From the UHGV virus genome UHGV-0148877: a stretch of DNA of 40,227 nt. One strand, written 5' to 3'. Below are positions 25,206 to 37,260 of this stretch, one piece after another. The notes below the pieces were generated by a model, which saw only the letters and a list, made by a program, of their open reading frames with translations, ran no database searches and was not told the origin of the DNA. The stretch is from a virus. Made by a program: the position numbers and the translations under genes. Within the stretch, counting starts at the first letter, position 1. Every line of letters starts with the position of its first letter.

Positions 25206-26681
25206 TTAAGCATAGGGATCGTAATCTGTAATGGCCTTGCCTTGCTGGTTCTGCTGACCGGGAATTCGCAGACGCTTCGACACCGGGAAAGCAAACGTCA
25301 GCAGTAGCGCATCGCCTTTACCCGGCGAACGCCCAAGCCGCTCCTTGATATCTTCCTTCGGTTCGATAACGATTTTACCGTCCACGCGAACTTTGTACTC
25401 TGCCGCCGACAGGTCGTCCGCTGTTTCCTGGTCATCCAGCATGCCGCCCAGCCTCAGCCATGTCTTGCATGCATTGAACATCTCCCCACGCTTGTTAAGC
25501 ATCTGCGGGTCAGTGGACGCACCGCCGAACGGAACAAGTTGCCATGTACGTCCCCAGCCATCACCGATTGACTTCAAACCGGTTCCGTAACCGAAGTCGA
25601 TGAACACCGCGTCAGCCTGGTACTGGTCTTCAAAGTCAGCGATACGCTTCGCCATAATCAGATCGTCGGTGGTCTTGTTGCCAGTCCACAACACCTTACT
25701 GTGCAGCCCCTGCCGCAGGTATATCACAGCGTCATCAACGCCGGAGTATGCAGGGTCAACGCCGATTATCACCGGAGCATGTGCCACCTGCGCAGCAGTT
25801 ACCACCCGTTTCATTGCCTCGTCAGTAAGACCGGTAGGGATAAACTGCAATTCAGATGCATCAGGGAATATGCCGCGCACACGGATTTTAACGAAGTCGC
25901 TGTCTTCCCCGTAGTCATCAACCCATTTCTGCAACTGCTGTTTGTTGGTGCCTTCCACCGTCCGGCTGTCAATCTGCGCAGTTTTCCAGCGGTGTTTATA
26001 TTTGCGGAAACATTCGCGGAAACGCCCGGTATTACGCGTCGGGTTCCCGAACGCCACCCAGATGATTTCGGTGTCTTCGTCCGTCAGCGCACCCTCTGCT
26101 ACCTCCCACACCAGATCGGCAATGTTGGATGCTTCGTCGAAAACCACGATGATGCGTTTGCGCTCGTTGTGTAGTCCGGCGAATGCCTCAGTGTTGTGCT
26201 CAGACCAGGGGATTGCGTCAGCTCGCCACCGCTTGTCGTGCCCAGGATCATTGCTGTACATCGCGGTAGCGGTACAGGTAAACCAGTCTTTCGTGATGGC
26301 AAGGTTCGACCACTTGATAATTTCCGGCCAGGTCTTCGTTCGTAGCTGGTTGTCGGTGTTGGCGGTCACCACGACCTTACAATCCTCGCAAGTGGACATG
26401 CCCCAGTTGATCAGCATTGAGATGAATGCGGATTTACCAATACCGTGACCAGAAGCGCGTGCCAGCATAAGCGGCTGATATCGCGTCTCTGGATTCTGCA
26501 GGTGATCACGTATCTCTCGGAACGCATCGGCCTGCCACTGACGTGGACCGGTGGCATGTGCCAGTTCAGTACCCTCTTCCCCCCACGGGAACGCATAGAG
26601 GGCATAGCCAAGCGGATCGTGAGTGAACCCTGCAATATCCTCGATCAACTGCTCTTCAGGAGATAACGCTGTATCTGTCAC
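25206..26681 (-). CDS. Terminase large subunit
   Basis: 491 aa; N-terminal ATPase region with a Walker A-like GHGIGKS and C-terminal nuclease-like region; start (GTG with AGGATGG RBS) overlaps the TerS stop. Confidence 0.85.
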   Translation of the reverse strand: MTDTALSPEEQLIEDIAGFTHDPLGYALYAFPWGEEGTELAHATGPRQWQADAFREIRDHLQNPETRYQPLMLARASGHGIGKSAFISMLINWGMSTCEDCKVVVTANTDNQLRTKTWPEIIKWSNLAITKDWFTCTATAMYSNDPGHDKRWRADAIPWSEHNTEAFAGLHNERKRIIVVFDEASNIADLVWEVAEGALTDEDTEIIWVAFGNPTRNTGRFRECFRKYKHRWKTAQIDSRTVEGTNKQQLQKWVDDYGEDSDFVKIRVRGIFPDASELQFIPTGLTDEAMKRVVTAAQVAHAPVIIGVDPAYSGVDDAVIYLRQGLHSKVLWTGNKTTDDLIMAKRIADFEDQYQADAVFIDFGYGTGLKSIGDGWGRTWQLVPFGGASTDPQMLNKRGEMFNACKTWLRLGGMLDDQETADDLSAAEYKVRVDGKIVIEPKEDIKERLGRSPGKGDALLLTFAFPVSKRLRIPGQQNQQGKAITDYDPYA

Positions 26682-29931: not shown

Positions 29932-30596
29932 CCTTCACAGTTGTAATCACTACAGCCTTCAAAATCATATGGGCTGTACTGCCAGGTTATTTTTCCGCAA
30001 TGCGGACAATTCCAACGCACCTTCCCGCTTCGCGACTTCTTTCTTCTGTTCTGCTCTTTCAACCAGTCAGGCATGACCAAACCTGCGCCCTGAACCATTG
30101 TTCTGCGATTAAAGTTATTGATATTGAACGTCCGGCGCTTTGCTGAATCAGCAATGGAAAATGGCAACCAAACTATTCCTGGTTCGTTTTTGTTGGCGAC
30201 GCTAAAGATGGTCGCTTTACTGAAGTCATCTGTTGGCAATCCACCGTGTTGAAGCCAGTAAACATCGTTGCCGTTCCAGCTACCTTTTTTGTAGGCCACA
30301 TACGCAGTGCAATCTGGCTCAATCAGGTTTTCTGTAGGGATGTACTGGCAATCAACGTGCCACACAGCCATTGCATCCACGATATCAGCGCAAACAGGCT
30401 GATCGATATCTCGACCACAATTCCAGGCTTTTTGGGCTTCTTCCAGCGTGTAAACATGAGCGCGATCGATATTAGAACTGTAACCATTGCCGTTATGGCA
30501 ATGGAATGAAGCGTTATTACCCACAGTTTCACGCAAGCACATCATGTAAAAGCGGTTATTCACTGGCTGCTTCCTTTGCGAATCTGTTCCGCCCAT
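29919..30596 (-). CDS. Hypothetical Cys-rich protein
   Basis: 225 aa (start uncertain; an internal ATG pair at 30545/30542 is an alternative); C-terminal WNCPHCGKITW...CSDYNCEGW zinc-ribbon-like motifs. Confidence 0.45.
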   Translation of the reverse strand: MGGTDSQRKQPVNNRFYMMCLRETVGNNASFHCHNGNGYSSNIDRAHVYTLEEAQKAWNCGRDIDQPVCADIVDAMAVWHVDCQYIPTENLIEPDCTAYVAYKKGSWNGNDVYWLQHGGLPTDDFSKATIFSVANKNEPGIVWLPFSIADSAKRRTFNINNFNRRTMVQGAGLVMPDWLKEQNRRKKSRSGKVRWNCPHCGKITWQYSPYDFEGCSDYNCEGWRE

Positions 30597-31141
30597 TCTT
30601 CAAGGGATTTCTCCGCATATTCACCAGACAGGCCATCAATCGGATGCGCTTCATTAGCCAACTCTTCTTTCGCTGACAAAATCATGCGTGTAACGTCGAA
30701 AACTTCACGCAAAGACTTATTGATAAATCCGTGATTGAACGCAGCAGCAAGACGGCTGGCGGTATAGTTAATCCCCTCGTTGCGTGCTTCCGCACGAATT
30801 TCAGACAGGAAAGCATCGGTGGCTGGGGTGTCTGATTGCATAGACTTTGCGCGATAATCATTCCACCCTCTTGCATATATGGGATTAACTTGCACCCCAT
30901 CTTTTACGCAATATGCCTGACCTCCACGGTTGATAACCTTGATTTCGTCCATAGCGCCAGACTTCAGCCCCGCATTCTCCGCCGCCAGCGCATTAGCACG
31001 CACCAGTTGCACTTCCAGTTGCGTTGCCAAATCGCTGATCAGCTTTGCCACACTACGCATATCAACGGCACCACATTCAGCTTTCAGTTCCGAAGCCATC
31101 TCATGCCCGGCGGCAACTAACCCTTTGATATTACTTTCCAT
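30560..31141 (-). CDS. Hypothetical protein
   Basis: 193 aa ORF in the nin-like block; no motif recognised. Confidence 0.45.
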   Translation of the reverse strand: MESNIKGLVAAGHEMASELKAECGAVDMRSVAKLISDLATQLEVQLVRANALAAENAGLKSGAMDEIKVINRGGQAYCVKDGVQVNPIYARGWNDYRAKSMQSDTPATDAFLSEIRAEARNEGINYTASRLAAAFNHGFINKSLREVFDVTRMILSAKEELANEAHPIDGLSGEYAEKSLEEWAEQIRKGSSQ

Positions 31142-31202
31142 CTTTACCCTCGCTTATCCACATAACTTATTGATTACATTGATAACTAAAAAGATCGTCG
31201 AT

Positions 31203-31547
31203 TCAGAACTTTTCGATGTTCCAGCCACCACCTGCTTTCTTTGGTTTAACCGTTACCCCGATGATTCGGAACGGATACTGATCTGCGGCGACTTTGGTTT
31301 TCACTCTGGCGTCGTCGGTCCAGAAACCTTTCACTTCGTGCAGTTCCATCTCGCCGGAGGCGAGCATCACAGCGAAATCGGGCGTATAAAACGTGTTATC
31401 AGCTAACCGCAGCTTGATACCCTCGAACCGATACCAGGCGATTTCCCCTGCACGTTTACGCTGCTCAAGGTGCTGGCAATACGCAGATTCTGTTTTGTTC
31501 ATCTGGCCTGTTTTGAGTCGACCAAGAGCCTGTATCTGTTTTCTCAT
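31203..31547 (-). CDS. Hypothetical protein (possibly DUF1064-like)
   Basis: 114 aa; first gene downstream of P; two operator palindromes lie at and just upstream of its start. Confidence 0.45.
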   Translation of the reverse strand: MRKQIQALGRLKTGQMNKTESAYCQHLEQRKRAGEIAWYRFEGIKLRLADNTFYTPDFAVMLASGEMELHEVKGFWTDDARVKTKVAADQYPFRIIGVTVKPKKAGGGWNIEKF

Positions 31548-31549
31548 GA

Positions 31550-31566
31550 TTTACCCCTGAGGTAAT
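31550..31566. promoter_or_regulatory. Operator palindrome TTTACC-CCTGA-GGTAAT
   Basis: Perfect TTACC-N5-GGTAA core abutting the start codon of the 31203-31547 gene. Confidence 0.5.
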
Positions 31567-31611
31567 TAAAAACCACATAAGACACGAAATCAATAGATTT
31601 TAGAATATTTT

Positions 31612-31628
31612 ATTACCCAGCAGGTAAT
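31612..31628. promoter_or_regulatory. Operator palindrome ATTACC-CAGCA-GGTAAT
   Basis: Perfect 6+6 inverted repeat with 5-bp spacer in the P to nin intergenic region. Confidence 0.55.
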
Positions 31629-31664
31629 CATCGAGACGTAAAAAAATGCGCTATCGCGCTGGTA

Positions 31665-32465
31665 TTACTTGATAAATCCTGCCGCCTTTCCCCGCCTGTA
31701 TTCCTCCATCAGCCACTGCGCCGGTGTTATTCCCCCAAGGGTGGCGGCGTTAGGCATGCACCCGAAACTTCGCCCTGGTGGATGGTAAACGTCTCTCCCT
31801 GTGTCCGGAGGTGTACTCATGGGTTCTGGCTTTGCCTGTATGCTGATCACCGGATCGGGTATCTGCTGTCCGGAAGCCACCTTTTTCGCCCAATCATCGA
31901 GCAGCCTGCGCGCGTGTTTCTCAACCTCAATCTCGCTAAGCTGGCGCTGATACATTGCACGGCGGGTATCACATACGACCCAGTACATAACCGGATGCCG
32001 CCACGGGAATCTTTCGGGACCACCAGGATATAAACTTTTTTCCTTGCTGTACCGGTGAAACTCCGCCATCACATCGTCAATGGTGACGCCAAGAACCATC
32101 TTGCTGTCTTTACACCACTTGATAAATTGCCCTGGCGACGGCCAGAACGGAGATTCACTGGCGCGGGCGTGGCGCATACCAGCAGAAACCTGTTCACGGG
32201 TTCGGATCCCCCCTTCGGCAAACGCAGCAATCCACTGCTGTTTTGCAGCAACTTCCTGCTCTGGCGTCTTCAGGTTGGTTACCACTGCCGCCGGAAACAG
32301 TTGTTTCAGCTGTTTGAAAAGGGCATCAACAAGCCTCTCTGCTGACATGTTCACTACGTTGTCATTGTTGGTGTACTGATGCTCATAACCTGACATGCGA
32401 GAAAGGGCTTCTCCGTCACGGTTTTGTATTGCGGTAAAAACGTTGTTCACAAGAAATCCTCCCAC
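31665..32465 (-). CDS. Replication protein P-like (DnaB helicase loader)
   Basis: 266 aa; block LFPAAVVTNLKTPEQEVAAKQQWIAAFAEGGIRTREQVSAGMRHARASESPFWPSPGQFIKWC closely parallels my recollection of lambda P. Confidence 0.75.
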   Translation of the reverse strand: MGGFLVNNVFTAIQNRDGEALSRMSGYEHQYTNNDNVVNMSAERLVDALFKQLKQLFPAAVVTNLKTPEQEVAAKQQWIAAFAEGGIRTREQVSAGMRHARASESPFWPSPGQFIKWCKDSKMVLGVTIDDVMAEFHRYSKEKSLYPGGPERFPWRHPVMYWVVCDTRRAMYQRQLSEIEVEKHARRLLDDWAKKVASGQQIPDPVISIQAKPEPMSTPPDTGRDVYHPPGRSFGCMPNAATLGGITPAQWLMEEYRRGKAAGFIK

Positions 32466-33262
32466 GCTTCAGGGCTGTTCCAGTGCGGAACGTTGTTATC
32501 AGGTAATGTTGATTGCTTCTGTCTGCTAATCTGCAGCCGCCTTGCCAGCTTCTGCTCCCACTGTGCCTGATGGTATGCCTTACCCTCAGCCATCCAGTAA
32601 ATTCTGAACTCTGCAAGTTCCTGTGCCGTTGGCAGACTGTCCAGGTAGATCCCCTGCAATGAGCTTTTCCGAAGAAAGTCATCTGATGGCTGCCATTTTT
32701 CATGCATGACAAATTTGCCTAATTGCCCTGGCCCACCAGGAGGAACAAAGTTATTCATCACGGCGTTGTTTGCGCCGGGGTCATGATGCACAGAATCCCC
32801 GTTTTTTGTCCTGCTCTCCCTCTCTTGGTTAAATGACTGGTTATATGACTGGTTCTGGATCCCGTTTTTGGGATCATTCAACATCCCGTTTTTGGGATCA
32901 TTCAACATCCCGTTTTTGGGTATATTCCCGTTTTCGGTAACATTACCGTTTTCGGGTTCATTGCCCCCCTCTCGGTTGCCTTTAATGTTCCCGTTTTTGG
33001 TTATATTAAGAGAGAAAACCCGCACTCTTTTTGTCGCTCCCTTTCTCTCCCCGGTATCTGAAATAAGCCCCATTTTCATGAGCGATATAAGTCCGGCCTG
33101 CACGGTTTTTTTATTCAGGCAAGTGTCTTTAACGAGGCGTTCTATGCTGGGGTAGCAGAGGTTATATTCATCGGCTCTGTCAGCCATCGAGAGCAGTATG
33201 AGCTTTAATGACGAGCTACCTGGATCTGTCTCCCAGGCCCAATCTGTTGCATGTCTGCTCAT
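32447..33262 (-). CDS. Replication initiator O-like protein (iteron-binding) with internal origin
   Basis: 271 aa; N-terminal HTH-like domain, central repetitive Asn/Gly-rich linker encoded by the iterons, C-terminal domain; directly upstream of and overlapping the P-like gene. Confidence 0.7.
   Translation of the reverse strand: MSRHATDWAWETDPGSSSLKLILLSMADRADEYNLCYPSIERLVKDTCLNKKTVQAGLISLMKMGLISDTGERKGATKRVRVFSLNITKNGNIKGNREGGNEPENGNVTENGNIPKNGMLNDPKNGMLNDPKNGIQNQSYNQSFNQERESRTKNGDSVHHDPGANNAVMNNFVPPGGPGQLGKFVMHEKWQPSDDFLRKSSLQGIYLDSLPTAQELAEFRIYWMAEGKAYHQAQWEQKLARRLQISRQKQSTLPDNNVPHWNSPEAWEDFL
32859..33005. repeat. Replication-origin iterons inside the O-like gene
   Basis: At least five direct repeats with core CCGTTTT(T/C)GG at roughly 24-bp spacing; the first two 24-mers ATCCCGTTTTTGGGATCATTCAAC are identical (32859-32882, 32883-32906). 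Confidence 0.7.
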
Positions 33263-33277
33263 GATTAATCTCCGCTA

Positions 33278-33478
33278 TCAGCTTGAATGTTGTGGGGAGG
33301 AATTAATCATGATCTGCTTAATCTCTGCCCTGATACGACGGTTTGATTCCATGGTGCACTCAACACAGTGTCCGTTGTAAACCCAGCGTTCACTGTCATG
33401 TCCGTGCTTACATGTTTTTCCGGTGTAGTAGCGTTTAAGTCCGCGCTTTGCGGCATCAATACGTGTAATGATTTCCAT
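33278..33478 (-). CDS. Small Cys-containing protein between cro-like and O genes (cII position)
   Basis: About 66 aa from the internal ATG at 33478 (MEIITRIDAAKRGLKRYYTGKTCKHGHDSERWVYNGHCVEC...); C-x3-H ... C-x2-C spacing suggests a zinc-binding motif. Confidence 0.4.
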   Translation of the reverse strand: MEIITRIDAAKRGLKRYYTGKTCKHGHDSERWVYNGHCVECTMESNRRIRAEIKQIMINSSPQHSS

Positions 33479-33557
33479 GGTAAGCCCTGTTATTAGTATT
33501 GGGATTACGGTTATTTTGTGCTGACACAAAAAAAAGATCAACCACATTTGGTTTTTT

Positions 33558-33574
33558 ATTACCTTTGAGGTGCG
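33558..33574. promoter_or_regulatory. Operator variant ATTACC-TTTGA-GGTGCG
   Basis: Perfect left half, variant right half (GGTGC, also seen at 33937-33942); upstream of the 33278-33478 gene. Confidence 0.35.
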
Positions 33575-33628
33575 AATAGATATGAAAAGACCGCCGGATG
33601 GCGGTCTACAGAGGGTTGTGGCTGGATA

Positions 33629-33859
33629 TCATGAGTAGAAGAAGTATGCCAGTTCTGCTTTTGAGCGCAGCCATTGTCTTGATTTACAGGCTTTAAAAAG
33701 CCCATCCATCAATACCTTACCTGGCATTTTGCGCTTACCTGTTAAGTGAGTCTGGATATAGTGACTCGTCGTTCCGGCTTCCTGTGCGAAGGCTTCACGC
33801 TCATCCGGAGTAAGTGCAAGCCAGTGCTTTTTGAAATCGAAATGTCCGTTATCGCTCAT
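33629..33859 (-). CDS. Cro-like early regulator (HTH)
   Basis: 76 aa; divergent from the repressor gene across a region with three operator palindromes; HTH-like segment EREAFAQEAGTTSHYIQTHLTG. Confidence 0.6.
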   Translation of the reverse strand: MSDNGHFDFKKHWLALTPDEREAFAQEAGTTSHYIQTHLTGKRKMPGKVLMDGLFKACKSRQWLRSKAELAYFFYS

Positions 33860-33894
33860 AGCTATTGCCTGATATTTATTTCAGATAATAAATA

Positions 33895-33959
33895 TTCACC
33901 TATAAGGTAACAAAAATCAAGGATAGTTACCCATGAGGTGCATTTACCTGTTGGGTAAT
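33895..33959. promoter_or_regulatory. Tripartite operator cluster between the cro-like and repressor genes
   Basis: Three palindrome copies: TTCACC-TATAA-GGTAAC (33895-33911), GTTACC-CATGA-GGTGCA (33926-33942), TTTACC-TGTTG-GGTAAT (33943-33959), in the 154-bp divergent intergenic region. Confidence 0.6.
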
Positions 33960-34013
33960 ATTGCTTTAAATTGAATCATCTTCTGATTCAGATATGAGGC
34001 GATTTTCCAGAAA

Positions 34014-34598
34014 ATGAAAAGTATCCAGGACGTCCGCAGGCAAAATCTCAACGACTTGATCGACCGTGAATTCAATGGTGTTCAGACGCGGATGGCTGAA
34101 AAACTTGGAACTCAGGCAAATCTGGTAAACCGCTGGGCTCTTGGCAAGAAGGTTATCGGCGACCAGGTTGCGCGAAAAATTGAAGCTGCCGCCAATAAAC
34201 CCCGTAACTGGCTTGATATCGATCGCTCGCTTTCTCAGGAAGGTTTTCAGCCTGTCGGCCCGAGTGATATAGGTCAGCTGGCTGCTCACAACCTGGAACG
34301 CTGGATGAGCGAAAGCCGCGACCTTTCAACGCAGGGAAAACTACACCGCGCATCCGGCGTCGCCCAGGTGACAATCAGCCGCCTGTTAAACAATGAGGTC
34401 AGCGTTTCCATTTCCACCCTGGAGAATGTTGCATCCGCATTCGGGCGTCATGGCTATGAATTACTGATTCACCCGCACGACCCTGCGACTATCAACTATG
34501 ACCGCTCGCGCTACGCATTGTTACCCGAAACCGAGAAAGCAAAGATCGAAAGTTACATTGAATTTGTCATCAACCAGAACGAAAAAAACAAACAATAA
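34014..34598 (+). CDS. Prophage repressor (CI-like, HTH; no S24 peptidase domain evident)
   Basis: 194 aa; N-terminal HTH (GVQTRMAEKLGTQANLVNRWALGKK) and a second HTH-like segment (ASGVAQVTISRLLNNE); divergent from cro-like gene; flanked by operator clusters; followed by a terminator. Confidence 0.7.
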   Translation: MKSIQDVRRQNLNDLIDREFNGVQTRMAEKLGTQANLVNRWALGKKVIGDQVARKIEAAANKPRNWLDIDRSLSQEGFQPVGPSDIGQLAAHNLERWMSESRDLSTQGKLHRASGVAQVTISRLLNNEVSVSISTLENVASAFGRHGYELLIHPHDPATINYDRSRYALLPETEKAKIESYIEFVINQNEKNKQ

Positions 34599-34616
34599 AA
34601 TCATATTTTTCAGTAA

Positions 34617-34643
34617 GTAAGCCGCCTTCTGGCGGCTTTTTTA
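34617..34643 (+). terminator. Intrinsic terminator after the repressor gene
   Basis: GCCGCC-TTCT-GGCGGC hairpin followed by TTTTTTATT. Confidence 0.65.
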
Positions 34644-34654
34644 TTGCCTACTCG

Positions 34655-34671
34655 ATTACCTAACGGGTAAT
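34655..34671. promoter_or_regulatory. Operator palindrome ATTACC-TAACG-GGTAAT
   Basis: Perfect 6+6 inverted repeat immediately after the repressor terminator. Confidence 0.55.
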
Positions 34672-34688
34672 TTTTTTAACTCATATCT

Positions 34689-34733
34689 ATTGACATCAAA
34701 CCAGATACGCATAATTATTACCTCAACGGTAAC
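34689..34733 (+). promoter_or_regulatory. Left-arm promoter region with TTGACA and operator ATTACC-TCAAC-GGTAAC
   Basis: TTGACA at 34689-34694; palindrome at 34717-34733; extra GGTAAC half-site at 34741-34746; precedes the first plus-strand early ORF. Confidence 0.5.
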
Positions 34734-34751
34734 AGACCGAGGTAACAAGTT

Positions 34752-34904
34752 ATGCAGTGGAAAATCATCAACGGTTGGTACTGCGTTACTGCATGCGGAT
34801 TCATGAGCTGGAAGTTCCGCACATTACAGGAAGGCATTAAGTGGGCTTTCGTCAGCAAAGAAGCTCGCGATGTAGCCAACGATAACGAGATATGGGAGGG
34901 CTGA
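34752..34904 (+). CDS. Small ORF, first in the left-arm early operon (below the ORF-track cut-off)
   Basis: 50 aa (MQWKIINGWYCVTACGFMSW...), GAGGTAACAAGTT upstream of the ATG; stop 2 nt before the next gene start. Confidence 0.25.
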   Translation: MQWKIINGWYCVTACGFMSWKFRTLQEGIKWAFVSKEARDVANDNEIWEG

Positions 34905-34906
34905 TA

Positions 34907-35206
34907 ATGAACGTTAATCAGCAGAAAAATCTTCAAAAAATCATGCTGGCATTCGACAAGGACTACCGTCTGTCAGAACAGCTATATGACCGACAAGTTG
35001 AACTGATTGAGAGTATCCGGCTTCATCAACTGGCATCAACTTTCGACGTTGTAACAGTTAAAGGCGTTCGCCAGGAAGTACTGGAGGCCGCTAAAGACAG
35101 CCCTGAGTTCGAAGAACTAATGGATGCCTACCGGCGCGAGGCAATGGCAATTATCGCCCGCTGGGATCTGGCTGATCAGCTTGATGGGCAGAGGGACGCG
35201 GCATGA
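34907..35206 (+). CDS. Hypothetical early protein
   Basis: 99 aa from the ATG at 34907 (GGGAGGG RBS); stop overlaps the start of the exonuclease gene (ATGA). Confidence 0.5.
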   Translation: MNVNQQKNLQKIMLAFDKDYRLSEQLYDRQVELIESIRLHQLASTFDVVTVKGVRQEVLEAAKDSPEFEELMDAYRREAMAIIARWDLADQLDGQRDAA

Positions 35207-36024
35207 AACCGGGAATTTATTTCGACATCAGCAACGAAGACTACCACGCCGGTGACGGCGTGAGTAAGTCGCAACTGGACATGGTTGCCAAGAATCCGGC
35301 GCTTCTTAAATGGGTTCAGGCAGCACCAGAAGACGAAGAGAAAAAGTCTGCACTGGATATGGGAACCGCATTGCACTGTCTGCTTCTGGAGCCTGGAGAG
35401 TTCGACAAACGCTTCATTGTTTCACCGAAATTCGATCGTCGGACGAAACAAGGTAAAGCTGACGAAGAGGAATTTCTTCGTGATGTGGCGGATATGGGGA
35501 TTACGGTACTTGATGCCGAGCAGTGGCGGAAACTGGAGCTGATGCGTGATAGCGCAATGGCTCACCCGGCGGCACGCTGGATGCTGGAAGCACCTGGTTA
35601 CTGCGAAGCATCAATGTACTGGAACGATGAAGAGACGGGGGAGTTGTGCCGAATTCGTCCAGACAAATGGCTGAACGAGCACAACGTGATCGTCGACGTG
35701 AAAAAGGTTGCAGATATGGACCGTTTTGCACGCCACATCGAGGAATTCCGCTACCACGTGCAGGACGCAATGTACCGCGAAGGCGCAATGAGGGTTACTG
35801 GTCAGCCGCATGGTTTTTTCTTTCTTGCCGTGAGCGAAAGCATTGATTGTGGTCGGTATCCGGTACGCGTGTTCGAGCTGGATGCGCAGGATGTCGATGC
35901 CGGGCACGCTCTGTTCCGCCGGGATCTGAATACCTATCACGAATGCCGCATCAATGATGAATGGGGCGGTGTGGAAATCATTAAACGCCCTGAGTGGGCA
36001 CGCAAACAGGATATGTACATATGA
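35203..36024 (+). CDS. PD-(D/E)XK-family exonuclease (RecE-like recombination partner)
   Basis: 273 aa; motif IRPDKW...VIVDVKKV consistent with a PD-(D/E)XK nuclease; translationally coupled (ATGA) to the RecT gene. Confidence 0.65.
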   Translation: MKPGIYFDISNEDYHAGDGVSKSQLDMVAKNPALLKWVQAAPEDEEKKSALDMGTALHCLLLEPGEFDKRFIVSPKFDRRTKQGKADEEEFLRDVADMGITVLDAEQWRKLELMRDSAMAHPAARWMLEAPGYCEASMYWNDEETGELCRIRPDKWLNEHNVIVDVKKVADMDRFARHIEEFRYHVQDAMYREGAMRVTGQPHGFFFLAVSESIDCGRYPVRVFELDAQDVDAGHALFRRDLNTYHECRINDEWGGVEIIKRPEWARKQDMYI

Positions 36025-36962
36025 GCAACGACATCGCAAACATCAACGCACCAGTAGACACAGCAATCGCTGGAACTGCTGCAACTATTTTCAGCCCAGA
36101 CGGCTTGAACCAACTGATGAAATTCGCCGAGGTAATGGCGCAAAGCCGCGTAACTGTACCGGCGCACCTCGCCGGGAAACCAGCTGATTGCATGGCCGTG
36201 GCAATGCAGGCTGCGCAGTGGGGAATGAACCCGTTTGCCGTGGCTCAGAAAACCCATGTTGTGAACGGCACGCTAGGTTATGAAGCCCAATTAGTAAACG
36301 CAGTTATCTCAACGATGTCGCCAACAAAAGATCGCATCAACTACGAGTGGTTCGGGCCGTGGGAACGCGTGATCGGTAAGTTTGTTGAGAAAACATCCAA
36401 AAACGGCAATCCATATATCGCACCAGGCTGGACTCTAAAAGACGAAGAAGGCTGCGGTGTTCGCGTATGGGCAACCATGAAGGGCGAGGATCAACCTCGA
36501 GTGCTTGAGTTAATGCTGTCTCAAGCACAGGTAAGAAACTCCACACTTTGGGCCAGTGATCCGAAACAACAACTCGCATACCTTGCGACAAAACGCTGGT
36601 CTCGCCTGCACTGTCCTGACGTAATCATGGGCGTCTACACCCCAGACGAATTACAGGAAACGGCACCGCGCGTTGAGCGAGACATTACTCCGCAAACGAC
36701 CACTGCTGCGGGAATGAACAGTCTGATCAACGCTAAACCAGCGAAAAAGCCTGATGAGCAAACGCGTAAATCGGACAGCCGTGATCCAGAAGAAATGCTG
36801 ATGGCCTTTACCAGCGCAGCGATTAATTACAGCACTGTCTCCGAACTGGATAAGGCTTACAAATACATTGCACAAAAACTTTCAGATGATGACGAACTGC
36901 TGGCAAAAGCCACCGACGTTTACAGCGTTCGTCGGGAAGAATTAAACGAAACATCTATGTAA
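36021..36962 (+). CDS. recT: RecT-family single-strand annealing protein
   Basis: About 313 aa from the ATG at 36021; conserved-looking RecT core (NPFAVAQKTHVVNGTLGYEAQL..., LWASDPKQQLAYLATKRW) and acidic C-terminus; paired with the upstream exonuclease. Confidence 0.8.
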   Translation: MSNDIANINAPVDTAIAGTAATIFSPDGLNQLMKFAEVMAQSRVTVPAHLAGKPADCMAVAMQAAQWGMNPFAVAQKTHVVNGTLGYEAQLVNAVISTMSPTKDRINYEWFGPWERVIGKFVEKTSKNGNPYIAPGWTLKDEEGCGVRVWATMKGEDQPRVLELMLSQAQVRNSTLWASDPKQQLAYLATKRWSRLHCPDVIMGVYTPDELQETAPRVERDITPQTTTAAGMNSLINAKPAKKPDEQTRKSDSRDPEEMLMAFTSAAINYSTVSELDKAYKYIAQKLSDDDELLAKATDVYSVRREELNETSM

Positions 36963-37011
36963 CCACCACCGCGGCGCCACGCGCGCCGCACTGCAACCAA
37001 GAGAGGTATTT

Positions 37012-37260
37012 ATGAAAGGTGCATTAGGTAAGAAGGAACTCCTGGCGGTGGTTCCACTGTCATGGAGCACTATCGACCGTATGGAGCGCGCAGGGGAATT
37101 TCCTAAACGCTGGTATATCACCGATAAACGCTGCGCATGGAACCGTGATGAAGTTGAGCGTTGGCTTGATGAACGTCAGGCAGCAAGCCCGGCAGAGTTC
37201 CAGGGTAAAAAGCCTCCTGTTCAGCAACGTGTATATCGTCCCGTGAGCAACGCTGCATGA
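37012..37260 (+). CDS. AlpA-family transcriptional regulator / excisionase-like protein
   Basis: 82 aa; LLAVVPLSWSTIDRMERAGEFPKRWYITDKRCAWNRDEVERWL matches the AlpA/Xis small HTH pattern. Confidence 0.7.
   Translation: MKGALGKKELLAVVPLSWSTIDRMERAGEFPKRWYITDKRCAWNRDEVERWLDERQAASPAEFQGKKPPVQQRVYRPVSNAA

Follow-up and report, generated by a model that had tools for sequence, protein, structure and literature searches.

The window analysed here is the whole of the virus genome UHGV-0148877, 40,227 nucleotides of a phiV10-like Uetakevirus, whose minus strand carries a replication initiator gene directly followed by a gene for a helicase loader of the lambda P family. Six short repeats lie within the initiator gene, in the codons of a linker between two folded domains. 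We consider it likely that these repeats are iterons bound by the N-terminal domain of the very protein in whose gene they sit, and that, together with a set of adjoining tandem 12-mers, they form the replication origin. The array is demonstrably non-random and, as comparison with other genomes shows, constrained at the level of the DNA and fixed in place after the N-terminal domain; the initiator whose linker it encodes has a P-type loader gene next to it. The initiator gene is 96-99.6% identical in phiv142-3, EC.W1-9, PAS61, phiV10 and others (97.5% DNA identity to phiV10 gene p43); in the phiV10 RefSeq record, region 30423-37250, the gene is named 'replication initiation protein' and no origin feature is annotated. 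As read along the minus strand, the locus is laid out as follows.

32447-33262, minus strand: replication initiator gene, 271 residues, with an HTH_36-type N-domain, a repeat-encoded linker and a DnaT-like C-domain
33002-33262, minus strand: coding region of the N-terminal domain, residues 1-87, predicted to recognise the iterons
32988-33003, minus strand: iteron 1, TAACCAAAAACGGGAA on the coding strand, 45 bp from the next
32943-32958, minus strand: iteron 2, AACCCGAAAACGGTAA
32925-32940, minus strand: iteron 3, TTACCGAAAACGGGAA
32907-32922, minus strand: iteron 4, TACCCAAAAACGGGAT
32883-32898, minus strand: iteron 5, ATCCCAAAAACGGGAT, 5-bp arms fully complementary
32859-32874, minus strand: iteron 6, ATCCCAAAAACGGGAT, 5-bp arms fully complementary
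32821-32856, minus strand: tandem 12-mers AGAACCAGTCAT and ATAACCAGTCAT with a partial third copy, directly after the last iteron
32796-32811, minus strand: degenerate seventh iteron-like copy, GGACAAAAAACGGGGA, weak
32468-32722, minus strand: coding region of the DnaT-like C-domain, residues 181-265, delimited with phmmer against solved DnaT C-domains
31665-32450, minus strand: lambda-P-family helicase loader gene, in a 4-nt overlap with the initiator stop codon, its start taken as in the phiV10 annotation

The window contains seven occurrences of the core of these repeats, CCGTTTTYGG, where 0.10 would be expected, a count reached in none of 100 shuffles, and six of the seven (plus-strand positions 32862, 32886, 32910, 32928, 32946 and 32991) are packed into 139 bp (32862-33000). 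A repeat search grouped six copies into one family, with starts at 32859, 32883, 32907, 32925, 32943 and 32988 and spacings of 24, 24, 18, 18 and 45 bp. A first-pass annotation of this DNA had placed at least five CCGTTTT(T/C)GG repeats, about 24 bp apart, at 32859-33005: the span does cover all six exact cores, whilst the spacing is 24 bp for two gaps only (the rest being 18, 18 and 45 bp). The two identical 24-mers that it described are the copies starting at 32859 and 32883, and the check that it proposed, with Tandem Repeats Finder (TRF), gave arrays of period 24 (32859-32920, 2.6 copies, 100% match) and period 18 (32908-32962, 3.1 copies); the adjoining 12-bp tandem repeat and the degenerate seventh copy are left out of its span. 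Run over the whole window at a score of at least 40, TRF found the iteron array, the adjoining 12-bp repeat, a weak 12-bp repeat of two copies at 26000-26023 (score 41) and nothing else, with the array far ahead of the others in strength. The seventh exact core, CCGTTTTTGG at 36397-36406 on the minus strand, lies inside a RecT-like gene (35994-36962) in a context without dyad arms, ATCCAAAAACGGCAAT, and is probably there by chance.

On the coding strand the full iteron reads ATCCCAAAAACGGGAT, a CC-N6-GG dyad with a central A5 tract. CC-N6-GG is unchanged in all six window copies; of the 5-bp arms, those of the two identical copies are fully complementary, and those of the remaining four pair at 2-4 of 5 positions. 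The degenerate seventh copy, GGACAAAAAACGGGGA, has one mismatch to the core and arms paired at 1/5 positions; at the same position a Superficieibacter locus (L098) has a similar sequence, AAACGGGGGAT. On the opposite strand, a 95-residue antisense open reading frame (ORF; 32868-33155, plus strand; MGSFNIPFLGSFNIPFLG...) is a by-product of the iterons, and in phage YDC107_2 a stretch matching it is annotated 'putative membrane protein', in a record whose homopolymer indels break the initiator gene. Two matches to a terminator pattern (32869-32888 and 32893-32912, plus strand) arise where arms of adjacent iterons face each other ahead of a T5 run; they are antisense to the initiator gene and likely incidental. 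Three GATC (Dam) sites within 42 bp (32858-32899) derive from the GGGATC arm of the iteron, the background being 3.9 per kb.

The iterons code for residues 88-134 (TKNGN...EPENGN VTENGN IPKNGM LNDPKNGM LNDPKNGI), their cores being read as T/P/E-K/E-N-G, and the array is indeed, as had been proposed, a repetitive Asn/Gly-rich linker, here set between an HTH_36 and a DnaT-like domain. Could the repeats then concern the protein alone, as a low-complexity Asn/Gly/Lys linker grown by replication slippage, with no role for the DNA? All six window copies share one frame and encode x-N-G peptides, and copy number in close relatives shifts by in-frame units, as slippage in a tolerant linker would have it. 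These close relatives are a set of 79 near-identical initiator genes, namely 78 from viral contigs and that of the window; the viral-contig scan gave only near-identical relatives, and so it informs on copy-number variation and not on diversity. Cores per gene range from 4 to 9 with a mode of 6, 54/79 genes have six cores at exactly the window's spacing, and the changes in length are always in 18- or 24-bp units. The phage BP9 record, for instance, is short of one 24-mer, and phiV10 has one additional 12-mer. Because copy number shifts in this way among near-identical phages, the initiator tolerates changes in linker length. The phiV10-like replication module of BP9 (PP488543.1, 133.4-137.2 kb) stands in a 138-kb record classed as Vequintavirus, and another such module is found in phage PH444 (PP350014.1), a 115-kb 'UNVERIFIED_ORG' record; both records are probably chimeric assemblies or contamination.

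It is the distant relatives that largely refute slippage. Searches with tblastn revealed phages that share only the N-terminal part of the initiator, and others that share only its C-terminal part. The N-domain is 46-57% identical in Enterobacteria phage PPompW, Edwardsiella phages GF-2 and Edno5, Vibrio phage H20 and Acinetobacter phage AP22, all of which have arrays of the same core immediately after it. A further 80 loci came from a scan with one genome for each species, which gave a total of 85 with N-domains at 40-87% identity, from Enterobacterales, Vibrio, Pseudoalteromonas, Acinetobacter, Marinomonas, Burkholderiales and Sphingomonadales. Across these 85 loci, the degenerate CC-N6-GG motif reaches 9.1 per kb at +200 to +640 nt from the N-domain start and 0.24 per kb elsewhere, a 38-fold enrichment after the N-domain, and 69 loci have at least three copies. 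The matches fall into all three reading frames (223, 68 and 43), and, depending on the gene, the exact core CCAAAAACGG codes for PKNG, TQKRE/TQKRD or DPKTEQ. As the same core is read in every frame and yields unrelated peptides, the constraint on the iterons, to judge by these translations, acts on the DNA and not on the peptide.

Moreover, by the counts obtained, the iteron variant tracks the N-domain clade. In three clades that together comprise 24 loci, the window's included, the CCRAAAAYGG type outnumbers the other by 109 to 1; in a 34-locus Acinetobacter clade, CCAACAAYGG-type copies number 115 against one of the window's type; and smaller clades carry further variants, such as GTACCAAAAGTGGTAC. 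Clear dyads are seen in relatives, e.g. ATCCCAAAATTGGGAT and GTACCAAAAGTGGTAC. The 34 loci, which lie within L117-L170 and are almost all from Acinetobacter (e.g. L125, ~1800-1930), have a 7-residue insertion in the N-domain and the variant iteron ACAGTNCCAACAAYGGNAC, which is spaced at 17 and 22 bp, occurs in all three frames and sometimes has one arm replaced. For a linker shaped by slippage alone, this is hard to accommodate: the DNA core is kept across genera though the flanking domain is only 40-57% identical as protein, dyad symmetry means nothing to a peptide, the variant follows the N-domain clade and not the C-domain, the same C-domain joined to another N-domain comes with linkers that lack repeats, and iterons are reported to be missing from dopC genes, which share this architecture (PMC5509034). 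We therefore regard a purely protein-level origin of the repeats as very improbable.

What kind of protein carries the array? The initiator matches Pfam HTH_36 at residues 18-67 (E=1.8e-10) and the Pfam DnaT C-terminal DNA-binding domain at residues 184-252 (E=1.5e-15), with the iterons at residues 88-134 between the two, and it matches PHROG 1032, 'replication initiation protein', at E=4e-108. Against the solved DnaT C-domains 6aep, 4ou6, 2ru8 and 9zbt, phmmer gave E-values of about 1e-20, whilst the NCBIfam DnaT equivalog NF002770 reached 84.7 bits, short of its cut-off of 201, and matched only residues 181-264. The adjacent loader matches Pfam PF06992 (E=1.5e-56) and is 31% identical to lambda P (E=2e-36). 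The initiator gene is preceded upstream by a small ORF, a terminator-like site and a Cro-like gene, as well as by a promoter-like site (near 33.9 kb) and a repressor gene in divergent orientation; this is the early-right gene order of lambdoid phages, on the minus strand.

The gene had been called O-like at first pass. The repeats do lie in the initiator ORF (32447-33262), but the label holds for position and probable role only, as the protein is not a member of the Pfam lambda O family: it had no match to PF04492 (Phage_rep_O) at E<=0.01, where lambda O itself scores 5.7e-36, it has no lambda-O C-domain, and a BLASTP comparison with lambda O gave nothing significant, C-terminal half included. 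Sequence searches of the PDB likewise gave nothing significant for a profile of the N-domain and nothing for lambda O. A remote homology between the two winged-helix domains is nevertheless plausible, since the N-domains of both proteins match PHROG 678 and 345 at overlapping profile positions and HHpred has been reported to place HTH_36 in the N-terminus of lambda O (Brezellec et al. 2017, PMC5509034).

The array also travels with its N-domain. The initiators of GF-2 (locus L009, 1501-2343) and Edno5 (L010) consist of a window-type N-domain (57% identity in GF-2) and five iterons, after which, from residue 137, the protein is 62% identical to residues 156-299 of lambda O (E=2e-67); the gene that follows in GF-2 encodes a P protein 55% identical to that of lambda. 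Since the iterons of lambda are O codons 117-145 and its least stable 30-bp window is codons 149-158, the GF-2 junction, as placed by this alignment, is at the end of lambda's origin segment of iterons and AT-rich tract. In effect, the aligned genes suggest that in a lambda-type O/P pair, the lambda N-domain, iterons and AT tract have been swapped for a window-type N-domain with its iterons and 12-mers. The converse exchange is seen in Enterobacter phage Tyrion, whose P protein (L014, 1812-2597) is 86% identical to that of the window: the two initiators have the C-terminal domain alone in common, including an identical tail, VPHWNSPEAWEDFL, and the Tyrion N-domain is unrelated and comes without iterons. 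No comparable array was found in SPN1S, Tyrion, ZX5 or Rac YdaU, which share only the DnaT-like C-domain and have other N-domains, at settings that do recover the four annotated iterons of lambda. These chimeras, read from their sequences, demonstrate the independent inheritance of N-domain plus iterons and of C-domain plus P as two modules. Such behaviour resembles that of classical lambdoid phages, reportedly seen in studies of lambda/434/phi80/82 hybrids. In loci L098-L177, the cassette of N-domain and iterons is found in combination with many unrelated C-terminal regions, some DnaT-like, some lambda-O-like and several of other kinds, and in AP22 it precedes a DnaB-like helicase gene instead of a P gene.

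A second element accompanies the iterons. Two and a half copies of a 12-mer lie between the sixth iteron and the degenerate seventh (TRF: 32826-32854, period 12, 2.4 copies), and a consensus of it, xRAAYCNNYCA on the coding strand, has ~170 matches in the 85 loci, of which 123 are at +300 to +500 nt. At least two copies are present in 51/85 loci, usually in tandem and 12-13 bp apart, and the element occurs alongside either iteron variant, in two different frames. As the 12-mer stays constant where the iteron variant changes, it could be a sequence-specific unwinding or helicase-loading element that is read by something other than the iteron-reading surface; we infer that the 12-mers at 32821-32856 are the best candidate for such a site. 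The stretch at 32820-32849 is 63% AT (z=1.9, 95th percentile of the window), as compared with 83% for the tract of lambda (z=3.4), which is the least stable 30-bp window of its region.

Taken together, the recurrence of the array after homologous N-domains, its tracking of the N-domain clade and the GF-2 chimera support the reading of the repeats as iterons of a replication origin, and the first-pass proposal that they mark the origin thus finds comparative backing, from 85 loci and all reading frames. Several points weigh against it. We found no experimental report of initiator binding or of origin firing for the window phage or any relative. A strongly AT-rich unwinding tract of the lambda type is not evident beside the iterons (63% vs 83% AT); perfect 5-bp arms are present in only 2/6 iterons, the other four matching at 2-4/5; and, with all six window copies in one frame, the argument from reading frames rests on the relatives. 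The minimum of cumulative GC skew, at ~32-35 kb, coincides with the switch in transcription direction and is uninformative, and single-sequence AlphaFold2 gave a mean pLDDT (predicted local distance difference test score) of 37 and no usable model of the N-domain.

Perhaps, then, the repeats do bind the initiator and serve its autoregulation or copy control, by titration, handcuffing or a transcription roadblock, with replication starting elsewhere. Plasmid iterons have control roles besides their origin roles, the comparative evidence ties the repeats to the N-domain and not to the start of DNA synthesis, and the adjoining AT-rich tract is weak. However, the window has neither a repeat cluster of comparable strength nor a DnaA-box cluster elsewhere; the GF-2 cassette stands at the place of the lambda origin in an otherwise lambda-type O/P pair; and a second conserved element of non-coding type flanks the repeats, as is usual in origins. 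A weaker argument comes from NZ_CP148379.1 (L179), an 8,461-bp circular E. coli 'plasmid' without replicon type, whose only replication genes are a short P gene and one for an HTH_36/DnaT-like initiator of the PPompW type. The 41,027-bp E. coli 'plasmid' records NZ_CP079771.1 and NZ_CP079768.1 have an identical N-domain in a DnaT-like gene, and these circular records lend weak, circumstantial support to autonomous replication. On balance we hold a purely regulatory role to be improbable.

Nor is it probable, and it is marginally less so than slippage, that the repeats serve a different factor or process as its sites, be it host DnaA, IHF, SeqA, a phage repressor, a packaging signal or a recombination hotspot. 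Three GATC sites in 42 bp of the array would fit such a role, as would the ease with which its copy number changes. DnaA boxes, however, are at chance level in the window and absent from the array; a single perfect box, TTATCCACA, was found at 31154-31162 (plus strand), ~1.7 kb from the iterons and just past the DUF1064 gene. The repressor and Cro-like genes and their intergenic region are ~1 kb off, at 33.6-34.6 kb, and a host site would not be expected to switch with the phage N-domain clade inside Acinetobacter, which has both types.

If the repeats do act as origin iterons, how might such an origin fire? An early promoter near 33.9 kb, which so far is a consensus match only, would give the transcript for initiator and P-like loader alike. 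If lambda is a guide, dimers of the initiator would then fill the CC-N6-GG dyads, which at 18-24 bp apart lie about two helical turns from one another, and may form a bent, O-some-like complex. The region of the 12-mers, weakly AT-rich and on the promoter-distal flank, would presumably open, and the DnaT-like C-domain could recruit the P-like loader with host DnaB, and perhaps touch the exposed single strand, as suggested by the O-P-DnaB interplay of lambda and the single-stranded DNA binding of DnaT. Once the helicase is loaded, theta replication would begin, as in lambda.

The likeness to the lambda origin, claimed at first pass, holds in several respects. In both, the repeats lie mid-gene and code for the linker between a DNA-binding N-domain and a loader-recruiting C-domain; in both, a dyad has an A-tract on the coding strand (lambda ATCCCTCAAAACGAGGGA, window ATCCCAAAAACGGGAT; the annotated lambda iterons read ATCCCTCAAAACGAGGGAAA on that strand), though in the window it is the best copies that are dyadic; spacing is about two helical turns (20, 24 and 23 bp in lambda, 18-24 bp in the window); a P-family gene comes next; and N-domain and repeats form one module, C-domain and P another. 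The likeness fails in others: the window has six 16-bp repeats where lambda has four of 18-19 bp, a conserved tandem 12-mer takes the place of the strongly AT-rich tract, and the N-domain belongs to Pfam HTH_36 and not to Phage_rep_O, with a DnaT-like C-domain. Iteron number is in any case variable, with 4 in lambda and 6 in Shiga toxin (Stx) phages (PMC7466680). Stx phages 933W and P27 match the window in having six iterons in O, in a group where the number differs among close relatives (PMC7466680), but their initiators are true lambda O proteins and their iterons are of lambda-type sequence.

A closer relative in architecture is the DopC/DopE pair, in which DopC (HTH_36 plus a DnaT C-motif) is encoded beside the P-like DopE, a chromosomal pair of Cellvibrionales and Oceanospirillales domesticated from lambdoid O and P genes (PMC5509034). 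The window gene has both domains and is followed by a lambda-P-like gene, as in that pair; it differs in lying in a phage genome and in having iterons, whilst for dopC the authors report that no iterons were found and that there is no origin there (PMC5509034), which makes it a phage counterpart and not a dopC. A Marinomonas locus (L111) considered as a dopC negative control was set aside: its context is phage-like by inspection, with no obvious P-like gene, the downstream ORFs not having been scanned. Iteron plasmids (RK2 TrfA, pPS10 RepA, F RepE, R6K pi) also have a winged-helix initiator acting on direct repeats beside a short-repeat unwinding element, such as the 13-mers of RK2 (see also PMC4081077), but their iterons lie outside the rep gene, and we detected no homology between the window initiator and any of these four proteins. 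From E. coli DnaT (primosomal protein I), to whose solved C-domain the C-terminal 85 residues are matched (E about 1e-20), the window protein differs in lacking the DnaT N-terminal domain, in being phage-encoded and in being paired with a P-type and not a DnaC-type loader.

The kind of feature is thus well known, a lambda-style origin inside an initiator gene, but it is built from different domains and a different repeat sequence, and the current view of how such origins work is left unchanged. A literature search on the origins of phiV10, epsilon15 and Uetakevirus, on the motif, and on HTH_36 with iterons found no description of such an origin. Our results place the probable replication origin of phiV10-type phages (Uetakevirus, which serve as reporter and typing phages for E. 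coli O157) at 32.8-33.0 kb, which is useful for annotating or engineering these phages, or for building replicons from them. Beyond Uetakevirus, the rule known from lambda, that an initiator carries its own binding sites in the codons of its linker, extends to a different initiator family across Proteobacteria, and an HTH_36-type domain followed by a CC-N6-GG array and then a tandem 12-mer is a signature with which to predict origins in hundreds of prophages.

Could these three parts amount to more? We tentatively raise the possibility, to which we would give somewhat less than an even chance, that they are a widespread and apparently undescribed portable origin cassette, in which an HTH_36-type domain, CC-N6-GG iterons in linker codons and the tandem 12-mer xRAAYCNNYCA have been combined with many C-terminal recruitment domains unrelated to one another: DnaT-like or lambda-O-C ones with P, those with DnaB-like-helicase partners, and others. 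The window pair supplies an iteron-bearing phage counterpart for the domesticated DopC/DopE helicase-loading pair, and the portable cassette, if true, would also identify the type of phage ancestor from which that bacterial pair came. The part most worth following is therefore the cassette of N-domain, iterons and 12-mer across Proteobacteria, together with its link to DopC/DopE.

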